NCBI GenBank assembly: GCA_016196625.1
Contig: JACPXH010000006.1
Coordinates: 32,660-96,659 of the forward strand
Length of the DNA stretch: 64,000 nt
Direction of reading: 5' to 3'
From: Candidatus Parcubacteria bacterium
GTDB taxonomy: Bacteria; Patescibacteriota; Minisyncoccia; JACPXH01
The position numbers and the translations under genes were made by a program. Positions within the stretch are counted from its first letter, which is position 1. Each line of letters begins with the position of its first letter. Positions 4,776-40,232 of the stretch are shown here, one piece after another. The notes beneath the pieces are model-generated. The model was not told the DNA's origin and ran no database searches. It was given only the letters and a program-made list of their open reading frames with translations.

Positions 4776-4813
4776 CACCATTCTAATGTATTAATACATT
4801 AGAATGGTGGGCG
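4776..4813. repeat. AT-rich perfect palindrome, copy 1 (CCCACCATTCTAATGTATTAATACATTAGAATGGTGGG)
   Basis: The same 24-26 bp core TTCTAATGTATTAATACATTAGAA recurs at 15841-15874 and 40199-40232. All copies are intergenic. Confidence 0.8.
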
Positions 4814-6158: not shown

Positions 6159-6498
6159 GTCATTGCGAGCGAAGCGAAGCAATCTCGAGGAGATCTTGGT
6201 ATGACGGATTTCTACTTTCGATCAGTGCAATCTTTTTCTGACGTGATCCAGCTTTTATTTTCTTTTCGGCAGATATAGCATCTTCCGCAGTAGGAAATGT
6301 TTCGGAATAGACAAGTTTTCCGATCCGATATTTTATCGTGAACCCGTCAGGGGAGCCATTTCGATGTTCGTGCATCCGTCTCATGATGTCATTCGTCACG
6401 CCAGTATAGAAAACAGTGTTCCGTTTATTCGTAGCGATGTATACGAAATACTCTTTCGGCATGAGATTGCTTCGTCGCTTCGGCTCCTCGCAATGACG
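6159..6498. mobile_element. MITE-like element: ~33 bp inverted repeats (GTCATTGCGAGCGAAGCGAAGCAATCTC / GAGATTGCTTCGTCGCTTCGGCTCCTCGCAATGAC) flanking a GIY-YIG gene
   Basis: The inverted repeats abut both ends of the gene exactly: the stop codon lies inside the left repeat (6160-6162) and the start codon ATG (6460-6462) immediately abuts the right repeat. The same repeat pair recurs without cargo at 12760-12848, 14494-14564, 19278-19355, and in degenerate form at 15924-15978. Confidence 0.65.
6160..6462 (-). CDS. small GIY-YIG nuclease family protein
   Basis: MPKEYFVYIATNKRNTVFYTGVTNDIMRRMHEHRNG is a GIY-YIG domain (100 aa). The C-terminal LEIASLRSQ is encoded by the flanking hairpin repeat. 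Confidence 0.75.
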   Translation of the reverse strand: MPKEYFVYIATNKRNTVFYTGVTNDIMRRMHEHRNGSPDGFTIKYRIGKLVYSETFPTAEDAISAEKKIKAGSRQKKIALIESRNPSYQDLLEIASLRSQ

Positions 6499-11299: not shown

Positions 11300-11674
11300 C
11301 TAGCTTTTTGTGGCGCGAGGGTTGAGGGTTTTGATCATAGCGTGAAGCATCTTCATCACTTCAGTAAGAAGTGCCGTTGTCCTTGCGTAATCCAGACGTT
11401 TTGTTTTCGGGAGGCGCTGCGCGATTTCGAGTTGCGTTTCCAGCTCGGCGCCAGAGCTGTACGCGATTCGGAGAAACTGGAGGAAGTCTTGTTTCGTGCC
11501 GCGATGGCGACCCTCTGCAATGTTTGAAGCAATCGTTACCGCTGACCGACGCATCTGGGCGATGAGTCCGTAGATCTCTTCTCGCGGGAATTGTTCAGTC
11601 AGTTCATAAATAGCAACCACCAGTTGGATGGCGCGCTGCCACACAATGAGGTTTCGGTATGAGTGTATCGTCAA
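11300..11674 (-). CDS. four-helix-bundle protein (23S rRNA intervening-sequence protein family)
   Basis: [50 protein letters not shown] matches the TIGR02436-type signature. Confidence 0.8.
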
Positions 11675-11682
11675 AGTCGCAG

Positions 11683-11760
11683 GACTCGAAAGCTCATAAA
11701 GCTGCAGAAGTTCGTGAAGCTAATGAAGCTGATGAAGCTAGCGAAGCTAGTGAAGCTCGC
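11683..11760. repeat. tandem 9-mer array (GAAGCTNNN)x8
   Basis: gaaagctca taaagctgc agaagttcg tgaagctaa tgaagctga tgaagctag cgaagctag tgaagctcg. Related arrays at 56503-56610. Confidence 0.7.
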
Positions 11761-12704
11761 TACAGCCATCGCTTCCACCGAAACACTGCCAGCATAATAA
11801 GTCCCAGCGTGCCGATTGAGCCCAGCATGATCCAGAAAGCTTCGGGTTCGTCCTTCAAGGGGATATGGGTGAGCGAAACCCCGAAGATGCCGACGACGAG
11901 CGACATGGGCAGCAGTATCGCCGCAAAGATCGTGAGCACCTTCATGACTTCGTTGAGCTTGACCGAAAAGAGCGAGGCGTTGGTGGTTTCCAGTGCATTT
12001 ATCATGTCGTGGTTGTTTTCAAGGTGATCCCAGACGCGGAGATAATCCCCGAGGAGATCGCGAAAGTAGGGCCGGGTGCCTGCACCGTAGAGCGCCGGGC
12101 CAAGGTCGACCAATGACTCGAGGAGCGAGCGCTGCGGTTTGATTGCGCGCCTGAATGAAAGTATGTCTCGCTTGACGATTGAAATTTCGCTGATCATTTC
12201 GCGCTCGCGACCCCGGAAGATTTCCGCTTCAATCACGTCAATTTTTTCGGCAATGTGATCCACCTTGGGGGGGAGTGCTGCAATGAGTGTTTCGATGAGG
12301 TGGTAGAGGAGAATGCCCGCGCCCCGGCCCATGAGCGCGTTTCGCGCGGACTCATAGAGCGTGGCCTTATCAAACATGGCTTTGAGTGGCAGGATGGTTT
12401 TGGCATGAACCGTGATGACGGTGTCTGCCGTAGCCAGGATGTCGAGTTCGTGCGCGTGCGTTTCGCGGGTTTTCTTGTCGTAGACCGGAAAGTGCAAGAC
12501 AAGATAGAGATAGTGGTCGTAGCGCTCCACCTTGGCGCGCAGCGACGGCGTAAGCAGTTCGTTCAAAATGAACGGATCGAACCGGTACGCGTGCGCCAGA
12601 GAGTTGATTGAAGTCTGTAGCGGCGGCTGAATGTCAATCCAAGTTACCTCTGACGCAAGTCCAGATGTTTTGGAGGCGGTAAGTTGGTGGACGATACGTT
12701 TCAT
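11760..12704 (-). CDS. CorA-family divalent cation transporter (GMN motif replaced by GVS)
   Basis: CorA cytoplasmic domain followed by two C-terminal TM helices. The loop motif reads LPMSLVVGIFGVSLTHIP where CorA has YGMNF. Confidence 0.75.
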   Translation of the reverse strand: MKRIVHQLTASKTSGLASEVTWIDIQPPLQTSINSLAHAYRFDPFILNELLTPSLRAKVERYDHYLYLVLHFPVYDKKTRETHAHELDILATADTVITVHAKTILPLKAMFDKATLYESARNALMGRGAGILLYHLIETLIAALPPKVDHIAEKIDVIEAEIFRGREREMISEISIVKRDILSFRRAIKPQRSLLESLVDLGPALYGAGTRPYFRDLLGDYLRVWDHLENNHDMINALETTNASLFSVKLNEVMKVLTIFAAILLPMSLVVGIFGVSLTHIPLKDEPEAFWIMLGSIGTLGLIMLAVFRWKRWL

Positions 12705-12759
12705 GTTCGTTGCACAGTTGCGTTGGTTCTGGAACTCATTTTAAAGCCTCCGTCGCTTC

Positions 12760-12848
12760 GTCATTGCGAGCCCCGAAGGGGCGTGGCAATCTCATGAATA
12801 AGCCACTGATGAGAGATTGCTTCGTCGCTTCGCTCCTCGCAATGACGG
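12760..12848. repeat. cargo-less copy of the GIY-YIG-associated hairpin inverted-repeat pair
   Basis: GTCATTGCGAG...CAATCTC + 20 bp spacer + AGATTGCTTCGTCGCTTCGCTCCTCGCAATGAC. Confidence 0.7.
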
Positions 12849-13039
12849 TTTTGAAACGGATTTTAGGTTGAGCGTCACTGGCGCAGTTTCGTTGTATGGG
12901 GGTCGTGCACTTTGGGGGTGGCGGTTTTGGAGTTGACGGTTCAGGGAGAATTTTCTAACATCATACCACAAGAAAAGCCCGAAGGGCGAAAAATGGCTTG
13001 CTGGCGGCGATTTCTTACGGGGTTTCGATAGCCCTTGAC

Positions 13040-13460
13040 ACGGTTTATACTTGGTAGTATATTGGTAGTATAATGGATACATAATTCGTAGCTCCTTTTG
13101 TCGTCTAGAGCCGTCCAGAGCGTCGCCTTCGTGCGACGAGGCCGTTCCCAGTACCGCCGCGCAATCTGCCTCCGCATGGTAGTAGCGGGAATGCGTTTGC
13201 GGGCGGTGTGGTCCTGGTGGCCTCGGTTTCGGCGCTTTGGTCGGTCTTGCCGTCTATGGTGGGGGCGCGATCTGCTCGTTTGCGATTGCGCAAGCCATGA
13301 CGGCGTTGCCTCGGCACAGCAAGCGACAGATCTGGGGAGGTGGACGTTTAAGCCACAGCCTGATCGCGGTGCCGCCGGGGTGGGGCCGGTAGGGTAATCG
13401 GTAAGCCAAGAGTGAGTCGTCACTCTGGCAAGCCGAACCTCTACCGGCCCCTTCTTTTTT
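13040..13460 (+). ncRNA. candidate non-coding RNA (~380 nt) of unknown class
   Basis: TTGACA-17-TATATT/TATAAT promoter-like elements at 13033-13074. Several internal helices, a stable terminal hairpin and a CTTCTTTTTT tail (13448-13460). No credible ORF on either strand. No RNase P, tmRNA or SRP signature recognised. Confidence 0.25.
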
Positions 13461-13465
13461 GGCAC

Positions 13466-13495
13466 TTGACATCTAGTTACTTATCGTAGTATAAT
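13466..13495 (+). promoter_or_regulatory. sigma70-type promoter TTGACA-18-TATAAT
   Basis: Near-consensus hexamers at 13466-13471 and 13490-13495. Confidence 0.6.
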
Positions 13496-13501
13496 GCTAT
13501 T

Positions 13502-13735
13502 TGTTGATTTGAGATCCAGCTTGAATTGTTGTTAGTTCTTGAAAACACCGCATTCCTCCACAAATCCGTGGGTTTCCGTGATTACCCTCCTACTCGCGGT
13601 CCGTCCTGAGAGCAATCAAGGGACGGGGGGTCCTTCTGGACTTTTAAACCCTCGGATTTGTGGAGGAATCGAATAGCGCGAAATGGGGGCGGAGCGGCTG
13701 CTAGGCAGCCGCTCCGCCCCAGAGTTCCGTTGACT
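13502..13735 (+). ncRNA. candidate structured RNA / cis-regulatory leader upstream of ORF 13756
   Basis: A 23 bp long-range helix (13549-13573 with 13647-13671) encloses a ~73 nt multi-hairpin insert. A perfect 16 bp hairpin follows at 13686-13720, then SD GAGGGAGGA and the ATG at 13756. Confidence 0.3.
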
Positions 13736-13755
13736 TAAACCCTTAGCGAGGGAGG

Positions 13756-14199
13756 ATGGTCATGAACGGTAATGGACAGGCGGCATGGGCCGAGGCGGGG
13801 ACCCGGGTAACGGCGTTCCTCGCCGGCCGCGTGGATTATCCGCAGGCGACCGGGCTGGCCGCGGACGTCGCGGCGCTCCGGGCGTACGGCCTGGATCGCC
13901 AGCGGGACTGGCGGTCGCGGGTTTTGAGCGCCGAGCAGGCGCTCTCAGCGATGCGGCGGGTTGAGGCCGAGGCCGCAGCCGCGGCCGAGCGGGTCAGGCA
14001 GGCCGCCGTGTTCAAGACGGCGTACCGGCCCGCGCCGGCGATCGAGCGCCTCACCGGCCGCGGTATCAACGCCGGAATCCGGTGCGGCCGGTCGAACACG
14101 GCCGAGCGGGCGCGGCGCGAGGTGAACCGGGCCGCGCGGGCAGCGGACAACAGCGCCGCGGCCGAGGGGTTCGGCTGCGGAACCAAGAAAGGAGGATAG
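13756..14199 (+). CDS. hypothetical protein (very high GC, Ala/Arg-rich)
   Basis: Strong SD. 147 aa ORF with GC well above the window's average. Confidence 0.4.
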   Translation: MVMNGNGQAAWAEAGTRVTAFLAGRVDYPQATGLAADVAALRAYGLDRQRDWRSRVLSAEQALSAMRRVEAEAAAAAERVRQAAVFKTAYRPAPAIERLTGRGINAGIRCGRSNTAERARREVNRAARAADNSAAAEGFGCGTKKGG

Positions 14200-14493
14200 C
14201 CATTAGTACCTAGTGCGATAAGAAGATAAGGGCGGCCAACACCAGAGCTTATGCATTGCGGGGTGGCAGAGAGCCCGAAATCTCTGCGAACCGGGGAATG
14301 CTTCGCGGTGCGGCCCGCGATTGCGGTCGCAACGATGTTCTTCTGCTACTGCGGGGCAGGCGCGAGTGCTTACACGAGCGCCTGCCCCGTTCCTCCGAGA
14401 TTTGTATGGAATGAATGGTTCGGCAAGATCGCCGCAAAGGACTCATCCATAAAAGCTTCAGAGGAATTGCCGTGCGCGTGGCGTACCCATCGT

Positions 14494-14564
14494 CGTCATT
14501 CTGAGCGAAACGAAGAATCTAGTCCGAACGAGATTCTTCAGTCGCTTCGCTCCCTCAGAATGAC
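14494..14564. repeat. variant cargo-less hairpin-repeat pair (GTCATTCTGAGCGAAACGAAGAATCT / AGATTCTTCAGTCGCTTCGCTCCCTCAGAATGAC)
   Basis: Same architecture as 12760-12848, with CATTCTGAG in place of CATTGCGAG. 10 bp spacer. Confidence 0.7.
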
Positions 14565-14899
14565 ATAAGGTGAGATTAACAACCTGCGAGAGCGTATACC
14601 GTCGGATTGTGGGAAAAGAAACTCCAGGCATTGATTATTGTTCAGTTTGTCTTTTCGATTCGACATTGTACTAAATCGCAAAGTTCCTCGAACTTTGCGA
14701 TCGTACGAATATCGCCGCGCGATGTTCCAGTATGCGTTCTCGCAGGCGGTTAAAGCCCTCCGGCCCCCCGGCAAACTGTGAGCTCAAAAACATTTGCCGG
14801 GCCCCGATGTGCTGAGCATTCAACGTTCTTCCGCCATCCGGCGGAATGGACAAACCCTGCTTCGCGTGAAGCGACGCAGGGTCAGGATAAGGAGGGGCC

Positions 14900-15226
14900 A
14901 TGTTCTCGAAAAACACAACAAGTACCCAAGCCATCGCGGATACGCTTGGGCTGGTGGAGCGTGAAGTGCTCGCGCTCTGTCGGGACAAATGCGACCCGCG
15001 CCGGCAAGCCGCGCTCAACCTTCTGTTGATGGTTGGCGACTTGATGAAAGATGCCGACTATCAGAAGGCCGAGTTTGCGGATCGTTTCCGCGGCGTAGCC
15101 AGCACTCTGGGCTACGAGGTGCGATCGAGCTGCGGCGTAACGGGCAGCGGATCGTCCCTCGGCGTACTCAAGGGGATGCTGGGCGCGATGATCGCGGTCG
15201 GGGAGGTGATCCATGATGCGCTTTAG
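14900..15226 (+). CDS. hypothetical protein
   Basis: ATG preceded by hairpin CCCTGCTTCGCGTGAAGCGACGCAGGG plus AAGGAGGGG. A near-identical leader precedes ORF 16209. Confidence 0.45.
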   Translation: MFSKNTTSTQAIADTLGLVEREVLALCRDKCDPRRQAALNLLLMVGDLMKDADYQKAEFADRFRGVASTLGYEVRSSCGVTGSGSSLGVLKGMLGAMIAVGEVIHDAL

Positions 15227-15422
15227 TTGGGGGATCATCTGCCAGGTCGCGATTGGGTTTGCGGGTATCGTGCTTACCGTATTGATCCTCGGCGCTGTCT
15301 GGCGGCATGGGACTTCCCTGCTGCAAGAGGTGTTGGGAGAATGGTTGCATCAACGGCCCGCATTCGGGCCGATTCAGCTGCTGCCGCGTTTGACGTGGTT
15401 GCGACTGGGGAGGGTGCGATGA
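15213..15422 (+). CDS. small hydrophobic protein
   Basis: SD GGGGAGGTGA. One TM helix. Overlaps the preceding ORF's stop. Confidence 0.35.
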   Translation: MMRFSWGIICQVAIGFAGIVLTVLILGAVWRHGTSLLQEVLGEWLHQRPAFGPIQLLPRLTWLRLGRVR

Positions 15423-15528
15423 GTTCTTAGGAATTTGTGCTGCTCACCGTGGTGGCTGCCGTTGCGGCTTGGTTCATCGTTAGGACTCTCGACCGGAGTT
15501 GATGCCGGTTGAGAGAAAGGAGGACGGC

Positions 15529-15693
15529 ATGATCGCCTTGGCCGTGCTCGTTCTCGCGCAGGCGTGCGCCGTTGGCTTCGCCTGCCTGCTTTTCACGGGC
15601 GGCGAGCCGTGGCAAGAACACGCGCTCGAGCCGATGCCCTCTCGGGTACGGCTCGTCCGCTGGCCGCTGCCAGCGAAACCAAGTCTCAACTGA
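15529..15693 (+). CDS. small hydrophobic protein
   Basis: AAAGGAGGACGGC-ATG. 55 aa with a single TM segment. Confidence 0.3.
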   Translation: MIALAVLVLAQACAVGFACLLFTGGEPWQEHALEPMPSRVRLVRWPLPAKPSLN

Positions 15694-15840
15694 TTTTTTG
15701 ATCTTTCTTTAGCCGCTTCGCGGTTGGCACCGCGGGGCGTTCATGAGTGACCTTCGGTTCCTCGTTCTCGCAGGCGTTTTCGGGGGAAGTCGCCTGTGAG
15801 TTTCAATCATTAAAACTTCTCCCTCCATCCGAGCTCGTCT

Positions 15841-15874
15841 CATTTTCTAATGTATTAATACATTAGAAAATGAT
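15841..15874. repeat. AT-rich palindrome, copy 2 (TTTCTAATGTATTAATACATTAGAAA)
   Basis: See 4776-4813. Confidence 0.8.
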
Positions 15875-16208
15875 GTGAGGCGGGTTGTGATGGAGTCATG
15901 ATGCTCGATCCGAGTTCAGAACGGGATTGCTTCGCCCCGTAGAATCCCGCTAGGATTTGTACGTGGCTCGCAATGACGACCGTTCAGGCTTCTGATGGAG
16001 CTCCGGGCTACATCGCAACATTCGCAAGAATTTTGTGATCGCCCGACCATCGCAGGGCGATGGTTTAGGACTCCGTGTTCTATTCATCTTATGCGAAAAC
16101 CCCGCCTTGCGCGGGGTTTTCGCTTGGTGGTAGGTTGGGCAAACACAAACCGCCGTTTTCGGGCAAGCCCTGCTTCGTGCAAAGCGATGCAGGGCAAGGA
16201 GGGGATAA

Positions 16209-16483
16209 TGGCCAAACGGTGTTGGATTCGAGTCGGCAGTAAGGCGTTTCAAGTTGAGCTGGGAGACAAGACGTGGCATCCGGCCGGAAGCTCGCCGTGC
16301 GCAAAGTGCGGTAGAAACGACGACCGGACCGCCAGCCTTCTCGTCACCGGCGTGATAGACCCAAAAGGGTTTTACGTGCCGATGACGTCTCAACTTTGGG
16401 ACATTGCCGCCAATGCTTTCCGACGCAGCGGCAATGTGCTGGCTGGGACGCTGTGCGCGAGTTGTTTGAGTCCGCTGGTTTGA
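16209..16483 (+). CDS. hypothetical Cys-rich (zinc-ribbon-like) protein
   Basis: Start MAKRCWIRVG after the hairpin+AAGGAGGGG leader. CxxC (CAKCG) and CASC pairs. Confidence 0.45.
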
Positions 16484-16499
16484 GGAAGGAGGAGGTGAG

Positions 16500-16826
16500 G
16501 TGATGAACGAACGATGGATTGAGGTGGATGGGCGGCGGTTTCGGGTGGTGCTGAGGGCGCCTCTGCGGTATCGGGGTGAACTCGTTCCGTGCCGCGGCTG
16601 CAGACAGCTCGGTAAGGCGATGACCGTCCGGCACGTCGAGCGGGTGTTTGGCGCCGACGGTGGAGAGCTCCTACGGGACTCGCCCGATGGGAGCCTCGCG
16701 GCCAACACCTTCAGCCGCGAGCACCTGTTGGCCGGACCGTTGTGCAGGGGATGCAGGTTTATCCGGACGATATGGAGTTTTCTTCGCCTTCCGTTGCGCC
16801 CCGTGCCCGTTGGCCCGAGCCGATAG
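16500..16826 (+). CDS. hypothetical Cys-rich protein
   Basis: SD GAAGGAGGAGGTGAGGTG. CRGCRQ...CRGCRF motifs. Confidence 0.4.
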   Translation: MMNERWIEVDGRRFRVVLRAPLRYRGELVPCRGCRQLGKAMTVRHVERVFGADGGELLRDSPDGSLAANTFSREHLLAGPLCRGCRFIRTIWSFLRLPLRPVPVGPSR

Positions 16827-16917
16827 TTACTCCGCAGTAACGTTCTTGCTGTACCTTTCGCCGCGCCCCGTGCCAGTTTGGCCCGGGGCGTCCTGTTTTC
16901 TTGGCTTAGCGGCGTAA

Positions 16918-16942
16918 TAGCACTCTCGTATGGAGAGTGCTA
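16918..16942 (+). promoter_or_regulatory. CIRCE operator (TAGCACTC-N9-GAGTGCTA)
   Basis: Matches the CIRCE consensus TTAGCACTC-N9-GAGTGCTAA at 8/9 + 8/9 positions. Lies 35 nt upstream of hrcA and abuts a TTGACA hexamer. Confidence 0.8.
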
Positions 16943-16977
16943 TTGACACGACATTGCCCCTTGTTTAAGATGGGGGC

Positions 16978-17748
16978 ATGGACGGGCGAACCCAAGGCAT
17001 TCTTTCAACCGTCGTGCGCGAATACATCCGCCGGGCCGAGCCCATTGGTTCGGAGTGGCTGGCCGAGAGTTTTAATTTTGGCATCGCGGCGGCCACCATG
17101 CGTCAAGAGTTGGCGCGTCTGGACGAGTCCGGCTACCTCATGCAGCCGCACACCTCGGCTGGCCGGGTCCCAACCGACAAGGGCTATCGGTTCTTTGTCA
17201 ACCTTCTGTTGGTCGAAGAGCGCCGCGGCCACGAGCGTTTGCTCCAAGCGATGCTCCGACAAGCAGAAGCGTTCGAGCGAGAGCGCCAAGACATCATGCG
17301 GGCTGCCGCCCAGTGGCTCGGCGAGCACTCGCGGAATCTTGGCATGGTGGGCTTATCTGGTGGCGAGGATGGGGTCCTTCGACGCGGCTCAGGACAAATG
17401 CTCTATGCATTTGGTTTCAAGCAACTACTCCGGCAGCCTGAATTAGGCGATGTGCAATACCTTGCCCAAGCGTTCTCGCTTTTTGAGAGCATAGAAGAGC
17501 GGATTGCCGATCTGGTAGACCGTGTGCCGACTGACGCAACCAGTGTTTTCATTGGTCGCGAGAACCCGCTGCGTGAAGCTCGGCAGTGGAGCATGGTGGT
17601 GGGGCAGTTTGAGCGGGCGGGCGGGCCGGGGATGGTGGCGATCGCGGGACCTACTCGGATGGACTACGACCGGAACATTGCGCTCGTGGAAGCGATGCGG
17701 CAGTTTTTGACGGCGAATCAGGAATTAAGAATTAGGAACGATGAATGA
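16978..17748 (+). CDS. hrcA: heat-inducible transcription repressor HrcA
   Basis: Winged-helix N-terminus plus HrcA C-terminal domain. First gene of the hrcA-grpE-dnaK-dnaJ arrangement. CIRCE lies upstream. Confidence 0.9.
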   Translation: MDGRTQGILSTVVREYIRRAEPIGSEWLAESFNFGIAAATMRQELARLDESGYLMQPHTSAGRVPTDKGYRFFVNLLLVEERRGHERLLQAMLRQAEAFERERQDIMRAAAQWLGEHSRNLGMVGLSGGEDGVLRRGSGQMLYAFGFKQLLRQPELGDVQYLAQAFSLFESIEERIADLVDRVPTDATSVFIGRENPLREARQWSMVVGQFERAGGPGMVAIAGPTRMDYDRNIALVEAMRQFLTANQELRIRNDE

Positions 17749-19156: not shown

Positions 19157-19277
19157 GGCATCTCACCTCCTTTCTCGTTGTGCCATGGCTAATTTCCATA
19201 CAGTAATATAAAATATAAGTAACCAATAAGTCAAGACTTCAAAGTTTATGGTTCAAGCGAACGACTGTCCGAAAAAT

Positions 19278-19355
19278 GTCATTGCGAGGAGCGAAGTGAC
19301 GAAGCAACCTTGTATGTAGGCCACAAAGAGATTGCTTCGTTTCGCTCGCAATGAC
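19278..19355. repeat. cargo-less hairpin-repeat pair (GTCATTGCGAGGAGCGAAGTGACGAAGCAACC / GAGATTGCTTCGTTTCGCTCGCAATGAC)
   Basis: Same family as 6159-6498. 19 bp spacer. Sits ~90 nt upstream of dnaK. Confidence 0.7.
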
Positions 19356-19441
19356 AAAGGGGTATTCTCGGACAGTCTGGAAGTCGAGAACAGAAAACTT
19401 CTCGACGCCGCTCGAAGCATAAACAAGAGGAGATATCGCAT

Positions 19442-25033: not shown

Positions 25034-25107
25034 GCGCCCGTAGCTCAGTCCGGTAGAGCAGCTGGCTTTTAACCAGATGGTCGGAGGTTCGAATCCTCCC
25101 GGGCGCA
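25034..25107 (+). tRNA. tRNA-Lys (anticodon UUU)
   Basis: Cloverleaf: acceptor GCGCCCG/CGGGCGC, D-arm GCTC-AGTCCGGTA-GAGC, anticodon loop CTTTTAA (U33, UUU, A37), T-arm GGAGG-TTCGAAT-CCTCC, discriminator A. CCA is not encoded. Confidence 0.85.
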
Positions 25108-40198: not shown

Positions 40199-40232
40199 CC
40201 ATTCTAATGTATTAATACATTAGAATGATGGT
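40199..40232. repeat. AT-rich palindrome, copy 3 (CCATTCTAATGTATTAATACATTAGAATGATGG)
   Basis: Lies in the divergent intergenic region between 39935 and 40445. Confidence 0.8.

Follow-up and report, generated by a model that had tools for sequence, protein, structure and literature searches.

A covarying 5' leader and a candidate non-coding RNA gene at the start of a lineage-specific island in a Parcubacteria genome

Bacteria of the Candidate Phyla Radiation (CPR, or Patescibacteria) have small, gene-dense genomes, and their regulatory RNAs are, to our knowledge, almost unexplored. What, then, occupies a gap of about 1 kb between two genes of such a genome? The gap in question (12705-13755) lies between corA and a small orphan open reading frame (ORF), HYZ80_01525, in a 64-kb stretch of a Candidatus Parcubacteria metagenome-assembled genome; the whole of this stretch is referred to here as the window. 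The original prediction for this locus described a gene-free region with two promoter-driven, highly structured elements, either small RNAs (sRNAs) or a cis-regulatory leader. We consider it reasonably likely that two functional non-coding units on the + strand open a lineage-specific island at this position: a gene for a non-coding RNA, here called RNA1, and a structured leader that controls translation of the small ORF in cis (coordinates in Table 1). Of the two possibilities originally put forward, the leader is now well supported, because its paired segments are conserved with compensatory changes and no conserved coding frame was found; RNA1 is conserved as well, but in one homologue and without covariation.

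The leader motif was recovered from four other loci of the same clade (L002, L006, L009 and, as a partial copy, L014), and every homologue of the small ORF that was found (in L002, L009 and L006) has the motif upstream. L006 is the NCBI assembly GCA_016186535.1, whose CorA is 93% identical to that of the window, and L009 is a Logan contig with a corA ~77% identical at the nucleotide level. The evidence base comprises four to five sequences for the leader and two for RNA1, all from one clade. The leader region (13497-13760) folded with z = -9.0 relative to dinucleotide shuffles, and the leader core is 89.5% identical to that of L006. The long-range helix that had been proposed here (P1) is present, but it encloses three hairpins (P2, P3 and P4), and the junction is four-way rather than three-way. 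The P2 loop, CCCUCC, is invariant in 5 of 5 copies, and the P4 loop, UUCU, and the junction sequence (UUUUAAA in the window, UUU(U/G)AAA across the alignment) are invariant or nearly so. The length of P3 varies, between 5 bp capped by a GCAA tetraloop and ~19 bp.

Covariation was assessed for 40 base pairs over four aligned sequences (window, L002, L009, L006), in which 94.5% of the cells in P1 to P4 were paired. Changes on both sides of a pair occurred six times, distributed over all four helices, among them U-A to G-C, U-A to C-G and C-G to G-U in P1, C-G to U-A in P3 and C-G to U-A in P4; a lack of such conserved pairing, named beforehand as the outcome that would speak against structured RNA, was not seen. 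The observed covariation score was reached by 1 of 500 shuffles, and pairing fell to 32-52% when the 3' partners were slid. In the partial copy of L014, an A.C mismatch of L009 is a G-C pair. The variation is also stranded: the 5' strand of P1 in L002 has three differences, all of which give G-U or C-G pairs with an unchanged 3' strand, a pattern that fits the + strand only. A covariance model built from the alignment strongly favored the + strand, with 146 bits as against 47 bits for the - strand, and found no second copy in the 64-kb window; the motif is single-copy in the related contigs too. A covarying, conserved structure in the 5' untranslated region (UTR), on the mRNA strand and in 4-5 sequences of one clade, is what characterizes a structured cis-regulatory leader, and on this comparative evidence the junction is a real, structurally constrained 5'-UTR element.

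The leader unit (~13502-13761) would form the 5' leader of the first island gene, in which the four-way junction displays its invariant CCCUCC(U) loop, complementary to a Shine-Dalgarno (SD) sequence, and is followed by a variable hairpin and then by a partly sequestered ribosome-binding site. In the window, GACU (13732-13735) is predicted to pair with GGUC (13758-13761) and CCCUU (13740-13744) with GAGGG (13748-13752), by which the SD is half covered; L002 keeps the segment UUGACUUNAACCYUU and a comparable SD-covering helix. The junction may control translation initiation of the orphan ORF by presenting the anti-SD loop and/or by binding a factor, and control at the level of translation is favored because an anti-SD-like invariant loop occurs together with a partly sequestered SD. 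The perfect 16-bp hairpin of the original prediction lies where it was placed, but its sequence is not conserved, and only the presence of some hairpin at this site recurs: L002, L009 and L006 have unrelated hairpins of ~7, 6 and ~40 bp there. A similar hairpin, CCCTGCTTCGCGTGAAGCGACGCAGGG, was observed at 14855-14881 and 16168-16194, directly before the SDs of ORF 14900 and ORF 16208; one of this type also stands ahead of the ORF 14900 homologue in L009 (3560-3586), and a different hairpin replaces it in L006.

The ORF downstream of the leader was found as described, with its start shifted from 13756: ATG 13762 is the likely start codon, because the NCBI annotation and the homologues begin with MNGNG and the SD, GGGAGG, is at 13750-13755. 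Comparison with L002 gave 29, 28 and 53 differences at codon positions 1, 2 and 3, an excess at third positions. Homologues are very rare (2 matches among 5.8 billion proteins and 2 cluster representatives among 1.84 billion), and there was no match in Pfam, NCBIfam, PHROGs or PADLOC. The AlphaFold2 model (pLDDT 77) is helical, and its C-terminal helix is rich in Arg; a Foldseek search of the PDB gave no match at E <= 0.001 (best E = 4.8). It is possible that the 145-aa protein binds its own leader, which would be a form of autoregulation.

The absence of genes from the gap was borne out by several measures. The GC content of the three codon phases is spread by 0.03-0.04 across 12801-13700, as against 0.2-0.48 in neighboring genes; none of the ORFs in the gap is present as a called protein among ~15 billion proteins, and none of them, the longest included, matched Pfam or PHROGs. 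Between the window and L006, the RNA1 region has indels of 3, 2, 2, 2, 51, 1, 2 and 1 nt that break all frames, and the conserved coding frame that had been named as contrary evidence did not emerge from this comparison. NCBI annotates an 83-aa hypothetical protein, HYW67_03145 (MBI2624466.1), wholly inside the RNA1 homologue of L006. This annotation is probably spurious because its frame is broken in the window, where it is split over two frames.

Both consensus promoters and the tandem repeat were found where the original prediction had placed them. Judged by TTGACA and TATAAT hexamers with a spacer of 16-18 nt, promoters 1 and 2 are predicted sigma-70 promoters, and they were the two best of 5 promoter-like sites found in 6 kb (2.6 in shuffles). 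L006 has a single copy of the 11-nt repeat unit, which results in a perfect TTGACA-17-TATAAT at promoter 1. Leader promoters in L009 and L014 are likewise perfect (TTGACA-17-TATAAT) and stand 55-65 nt before the motif, as in the window. The stable hairpin and U-tract proposed to end RNA1 were also confirmed: a GC-rich hairpin, present in both the minimum free energy (MFE) and the centroid structure, is followed directly by the U-tract, which is the arrangement of an intrinsic terminator. A simple terminator scan did not list this element (13382-13460), probably as the hairpin exceeds the loop and stem limits of the scan; in L006 the stem is kept and the U-tract deleted. Upstream of promoter 1, a further block (12949-13034) shares 80 of 86 positions (93%) with L006 (P = 1.7e-7 for a neutral rate of 0.70). 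With a fold z of 0.12 its structure is unremarkable, and it could be a regulator-binding or UP-like region.

RNA1 would in this genome be an RNA gene with its own sigma-70 promoter and intrinsic terminator. Its predicted fold consists of four successive long hairpin domains, of which the last is the terminator, and exceeds dinucleotide shuffles in stability (13075-13462, z = -6.5). The sequence becomes homologous to L006 abruptly at 12949 and remains so up to 13452; over 367 aligned nt of RNA1 the identity is 94.0% (binomial P ~1e-30 against the neutral 0.70), above that of every neighboring protein gene (73-89% at the nucleotide level). Four-fold degenerate sites are 61% identical to L006 when five flanking genes are pooled, 70% in corA and 0.46 in cysS. 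The changes in RNA1 are enriched at predicted unpaired positions of a fold computed from the window alone (odds ratio 3.0, P = 0.004), and the 51-nt insertion of L006 sits at a hairpin apex and folds by itself. L006 is the one genome in which a homologue was found: in L009, corA and the ORF are only 346 nt apart and RNA1 is missing, and L014 has the leader and its promoter and no RNA1. On this reading, RNA1 was acquired in the sub-lineage of the window and L006 and is under strong purifying selection. RNA1 is single-copy in the window and in related contigs, and no integrase, transposase or flanking repeat in the window marks it as mobile. RNAduplex runs of RNA1 against the start regions of the island genes and the leader returned long non-specific duplexes, with no site common to the window and L006.

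A rearrangement in L006 bears on how the two units relate. This genome lacks the 113 nt corresponding to 13453-13565, and with them the U-tract, promoter 2 and the 5' strand of P1, and the last stem of RNA1 is joined straight to the leader core. The fusion is best read as a derived deletion, because L009, L014 and L002 have an intact P1 and L009 and L014 also the promoter. As read from this single genome, the deletion shows that RNA1 can be co-transcribed with the leader, and because the relative fused RNA1 to the leader without losing it, RNA1 may work together with the island, be it in trans or as an additional domain at the 5' end. For the ~380-nt RNA that had been proposed, the promoter, the terminator and the conservation hold in the window; its fold has no covariation, and its being a discrete RNA is not a feature shared with L006.

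Several observations count against two separate units, one of them a translational leader. A discrete ~380-nt sRNA is not a conserved property, because L006 has lost the U-tract and promoter 2, and transcription of RNA1 on its own is not a given. No compensatory change was found among 116 consensus pairs of RNA1 between the window and L006, and its fold thus remains a prediction; several changes in L006 disrupt predicted pairing, both in the terminator hairpin and in the stem at 13256-13260, and the - strand folds nearly as well (z = -5.3). For the leader, the covariation signal partly rests on few independent events, because the homologues all belong to a single narrow clade, with CorA 75-93% identical. 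The 3' strand of P1 in L006 is 100% identical although its partner strand is deleted, which shows, within this alignment, that it is constrained by more than P1 pairing. Pairing between CCCUCC and an SD is trivially possible for any SD, with no covariation beyond the SD core, and for L009 no sequestration of the SD is predicted. The transcripts, their ends and their strand are derived from promoter and terminator logic only, and the regulatory mechanism and any action of RNA1 in trans are likewise reasoned from sequence.

These points give room to other readings. The 5' part of the island may be one long multi-domain structured transcript, in which RNA1 would be the 5' domain instead of an sRNA in its own right, the leader junction and the blocks 14200-14470 and 14576-14760 would be further domains, and the terminator and promoter 2 a partial or regulated break. 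The fusion in L006, without U-tract or second promoter, speaks for this; in addition, the downstream non-coding blocks are as conserved as RNA1 (91% and 85-96%), carry helix-preserving changes and hairpin-sized insertions, and are extremely structured (14200-14900, z = -11.5). We nevertheless regard it as unlikely: in the window a textbook U-tract is directly followed by a 12/12 promoter, L009 and L014 have the leader and its promoter and no RNA1, such that leader and downstream blocks work without it, and the arrangement in L006 is most simply a derived 113-nt deletion. A bolder version, that the island is built around a new, Parcubacteria-lineage-specific class of large multi-domain structured RNA with its own function, in which RNA1, the junction and the blocks 14200-14470 and 14576-14760 together make up >1.2 kb of constrained RNA, seems to us improbable; if true, such an RNA could be a ribonucleoprotein scaffold, a processing platform or have ribozyme-like activity, beyond regulating small orphan ORFs. 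The conservation of RNA1 could also have arisen without selection for function, by recent recombination or transfer, for example as a decaying mobile or foreign remnant. Its presence in only two closely related genomes and absence from L009, the lack of compensatory changes, the heterogeneous four-fold identity (0.46 in cysS, 0.70 in corA), which suggests recombination, and the mosaic nature of the island would agree with this. We find it quite improbable, given that RNA1 keeps the same syntenic position and a perfect promoter in both genomes, is more conserved than all neighboring protein genes, has changes that avoid predicted stems and one large insertion at a hairpin apex, and is free of integrase, transposase and flanking repeats.

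Other alternatives concern what the leader does. It could act on transcription, as a processive antiterminator of the put or EAR kind that would take RNA polymerase past the island's many hairpins, or as an attenuator based on partner exchange by the P1 strands. In three genomes a consensus promoter precedes the motif by 55-65 nt, the motif is followed by very stable hairpins and by a long operon rich in hairpins, and the unchanged P1 3' strand of L006, its partner lost, hints at a second interaction. Yet no hairpin after the junction has a U-tract, which leaves no obvious terminator to regulate, and neither a conserved alternative pairing nor an Rfam match to known antiterminator RNAs was found, making control of transcription rather unlikely. 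Four-way junctions are known in riboswitches such as SAM-I, and the motif, as a conserved 5'-UTR junction of several helices whose junction and loops contain invariant nucleotides, might be a new aptamer sensing a small molecule. This is very improbable, as copies are known with this one gene family only, whose helical orphan product bears no signature of metabolism or transport, no Rfam riboswitch matched, and the most conserved single-stranded part is the anti-SD-like loop and not the junction pocket. That the inverted repeats are DNA-level elements without RNA function, either protein-binding operators or palindromes of the miniature inverted-repeat transposable element (MITE) or repetitive extragenic palindrome (REP) type, is barely credible to us: a 24-bp inverted repeat around ~70 nt does resemble a MITE, and the window holds multi-copy palindromic repeats, but the leader motif is not repeated in the window or the related contigs, sits at the same position in five loci, varies in a way that is G-U-compatible on the + strand only, and covaries in its inner helices P2-P4 too.

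Table 1. Coordinates of the features discussed, in window numbering unless another contig is named.
Feature	Position	Strand	Remarks
corA	11760-12704	-	Pfam CorA; closes the upstream gene block
Palindromic repeat copy GTCATTGCGAG...CTCGCAATGAC	12745-12850	unstranded	inverted repeat; outside both RNAs
Conserved block upstream of promoter 1	12949-13034	+	small GCCC-GAAG-GGC hairpin inside
Promoter 1	-35 TTGACA 13035-13040, 17 nt, -10 TATATT 13058-13063	+	11/12 consensus positions
11-nt tandem repeat TTGGTAGTATA	13051-13061 and 13062-13072		creates second TATAAT at 13069-13074
RNA1	~13070-13460	+	candidate stand-alone non-coding RNA, ~380-390 nt, GC-rich
Terminator-like element	hairpin 13382-13451, U-tract 13452-13460	+	U-tract TTCTTTTTT (also given as UUCUUUUUU)
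Promoter 2	TTGACA-18-TATAAT 13466-13495	+	12/12 consensus; ahead of leader and small ORF
Leader motif	13552-13669	+	conserved four-way junction, 118 nt
P1	13552-13575 with 13646-13669	+	24 nt, 96% complementary
P2	13576-13599	+	invariant loop CCCUCC at 13585-13590
P3	13601-13626	+	variable length
P4	13630-13641	+	GUCC-UUCU-GGAC
Perfect GC-rich 16-bp hairpin	13686-13701 with 13705-13720	+	UAG loop, no U-tract
Translation-initiation region	13732-13764	+	MFE and centroid structures
HYZ80_01525	13762-14199	+	small orphan ORF, 145 aa; first island gene
Small island ORFs	14900-15226, 15213-15422, 15499-15693, 16208-16483, 16500-16826	+	no family match
CIRCE-like inverted repeat ATAGCACTC-N9-GAGTGCTAT	16918-16971		directly upstream of hrcA-grpE-hsp20-dnaK
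HYW67_03145	L006 4640-4891 = L010 8442-8693	-	NCBI annotation

The gap is the start of a ~4.2-kb island that extends from corA to hrcA. Downstream of the gap, small + strand ORFs without a family match alternate with more non-coding stretches, and the island ends with a CIRCE-like operator followed by hrcA-grpE-hsp20-dnaK from 16978. The arrangement is syntenic from corA to hrcA in two relatives, L006 and L009, and absent from the more distant L008 (CorA 51%), where grpE lies 78 nt from corA; in the contigs compared, the island is thus confined to a narrow clade. Between the window and L006, it is a mosaic of conserved and replaced segments, with 12705-12948 (44.5% identity) and 13676-14100 (~53%) essentially unalignable. 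The first four of the small island ORFs beyond HYZ80_01525 (14900-15693 and 16208) are probably real genes because they are kept in L006 and L009, and searches of the island ORFs in Pfam, PHROGs, PADLOC and NCBIfam returned nothing meaningful. One product, of 108 aa, shares 90% identity with its counterpart in L006. Two short ones have what look like hydrophobic, membrane-like segments, and two are apparently paralogous with a zinc-ribbon-like CxxC...CxxC pattern, of which L009 has just one. The CIRCE-like repeat overlaps the -35 element of a TTGACA-17-TAAGAT promoter. On the other side of the island, adjoining corA, a gene at 11300-11674 encodes a 23S rRNA-intervening-sequence or bAvd-like four-helix-bundle protein; it is not at the equivalent corA-side position in L006 or L009 (the L006 copy is elsewhere on the contig), and no reverse transcriptase or template repeat was seen close by.

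Two further structured stretches were observed within the island. The conserved non-coding block at 14200-14470 is 91% identical to L006 and has a compensatory G-C to C-G change in a CGCGG/CCGCG stem in that genome. A second structured non-coding block, at 14576-14899, is conserved over 14584-14663 in L006 (96%), 14584-14657 in L009 (91%) and 14584-14626 in L002 (95%). It is closed by a 16-bp helix, CUGCGAGAGCGUAUAC/GUAUGCGUUCUCGCAG, with a C-G to U-A change in L006 and a 61-nt insertion inside the helix in the window. Neither block matched Rfam.

Repeats of another kind also occur in the window. The palindromic GTCATTGCGAG...CTCGCAATGAC repeat, whose copy in the gap is not conserved in L006, was also observed at ~6159-6498, 14495-14565, 15917-15980 and 19272-19360. 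With many dispersed copies and terminal inverted repeats it has the characteristics of a MITE or REP element, which RNA1 and the leader do not. Two short-read Logan contigs, L001 and L003, break off within the copy at 12745-12850, and fragments of the repeat match unrelated phage records at 91-94% identity. A perfect 24-nt palindrome, TTCTAATGTATTAATACATTAGAA, is present at 15845-15868, 4781-4804 and 40202-40225 and twice in the L006 island; it could be a regulator's operator or a small mobile palindrome.

Could these elements belong to a known family? Searching the whole window against Rfam 15 at gathering thresholds, the sole match was a tRNA-Lys at 25034, and permissive searches (12500-14300 at E <= 10; 14150-17000 at E <= 1) returned only sub-threshold chance matches to microRNA and small nucleolar RNA families; the homologous loci matched no Rfam family either. 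ARAGORN found the same tRNA-Lys, with no tRNA or transfer-messenger RNA (tmRNA) in the gap. The failure of the original prediction to recognize an RNase P, tmRNA, signal recognition particle (SRP), 6S or riboswitch core by eye is in line with these scans, which found none in the gap. Among the candidates set aside, RNase P, tmRNA, SRP, 6S and group II intron RNAs had no Rfam or ARAGORN match, and the leader, while cloverleaf-shaped, has a 24-bp P1 and a P4 with a 4-nt loop and no ARAGORN match as a tRNA or tmRNA. A retron msr-msd, a diversity-generating retroelement (DGR) template repeat or an insertion sequence-associated guide RNA was rejected, with no reverse transcriptase, recombinase or TnpB/IscB nearby and, for the DGR, no long A-mutated repeat present. 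An RNA thermometer (ROSE, fourU) was likewise rejected: the SD pairing is not found in L009, and the adjacent hairpins are very stable (16 to ~40 bp) and unconserved.

Wider collections were searched as well. Scans with the best-conserved leader stretch gave one chance match among GTDB genomes (L004, Comamonadaceae, intergenic) and one among JGI metagenomes (L005, within a Bacteroidetes regulator gene), results that hold only for exact 18-23-mers and would miss mismatched copies. Four IMG/VR scans with k-mers of the leader, RNA1 and block B found none; BLASTN against phages found only the ubiquitous palindromic repeat, at 12812-12848, and against plasmids nothing. The literature on structured RNAs of CPR bacteria contained nothing specific that we could find. 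By these searches, the leader and RNA1 match no described family and have so far been seen in one narrow clade only, while their kinds, a structured 5' leader and a non-coding RNA bounded by promoter and terminator, are familiar ones.

The locus combines a leader supported by covariation with a strongly constrained candidate RNA gene of ~385 nt, both outside Rfam. Roughly half of the island's length is conserved, structured non-coding sequence, which is unusual for so small a genome. Its very narrow known distribution limits the general impact for now; it does supply coordinates, a covariance model and natural deletion and insertion variants for studying RNA regulation in uncultivated bacteria.

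How do the two units compare with characterized systems? With put of phage HK022 and the Bacillus EAR element, the locus shares a structured RNA close to the promoter, at the start of a long transcription unit with many hairpins; there is no match in sequence or structure, and no demonstrated downstream terminators here. Like OLE, GOLLD, ROOL, HEARO and raiA, it presents conserved, structured non-coding RNA of several hundred nt in an accessory region, tolerant of insertions at hairpin apices, but the Rfam models of those RNAs match nothing here, only two to five loci are available, and covariation is confined to the 118-nt leader junction. RNA1 differs from stand-alone sRNA genes in its size, its four long hairpin domains making it far larger than typical base-pairing sRNAs, and in having no evident target or Hfq-type module; in L006, moreover, without the terminator and the next promoter, it becomes part of the leader. 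What it has in common with such genes is a consensus promoter, a long terminal hairpin with a U-tract, the lack of a coding frame and strong conservation. The leader can be set beside SD-occluding translational leaders, including ribosomal-protein leaders, anti-SD hairpins and riboswitch platforms. It departs from them in regulating an orphan gene, in having no Rfam match and in carrying its anti-SD ~160 nt before the SD, in the loop of one hairpin of a four-way junction. It resembles them in its placement after a promoter and ahead of an operon's first gene, in its covarying helices, in a CCUCC-containing element complementary to the SD, and in an SD that is predicted to be partly paired in both the window and L002.

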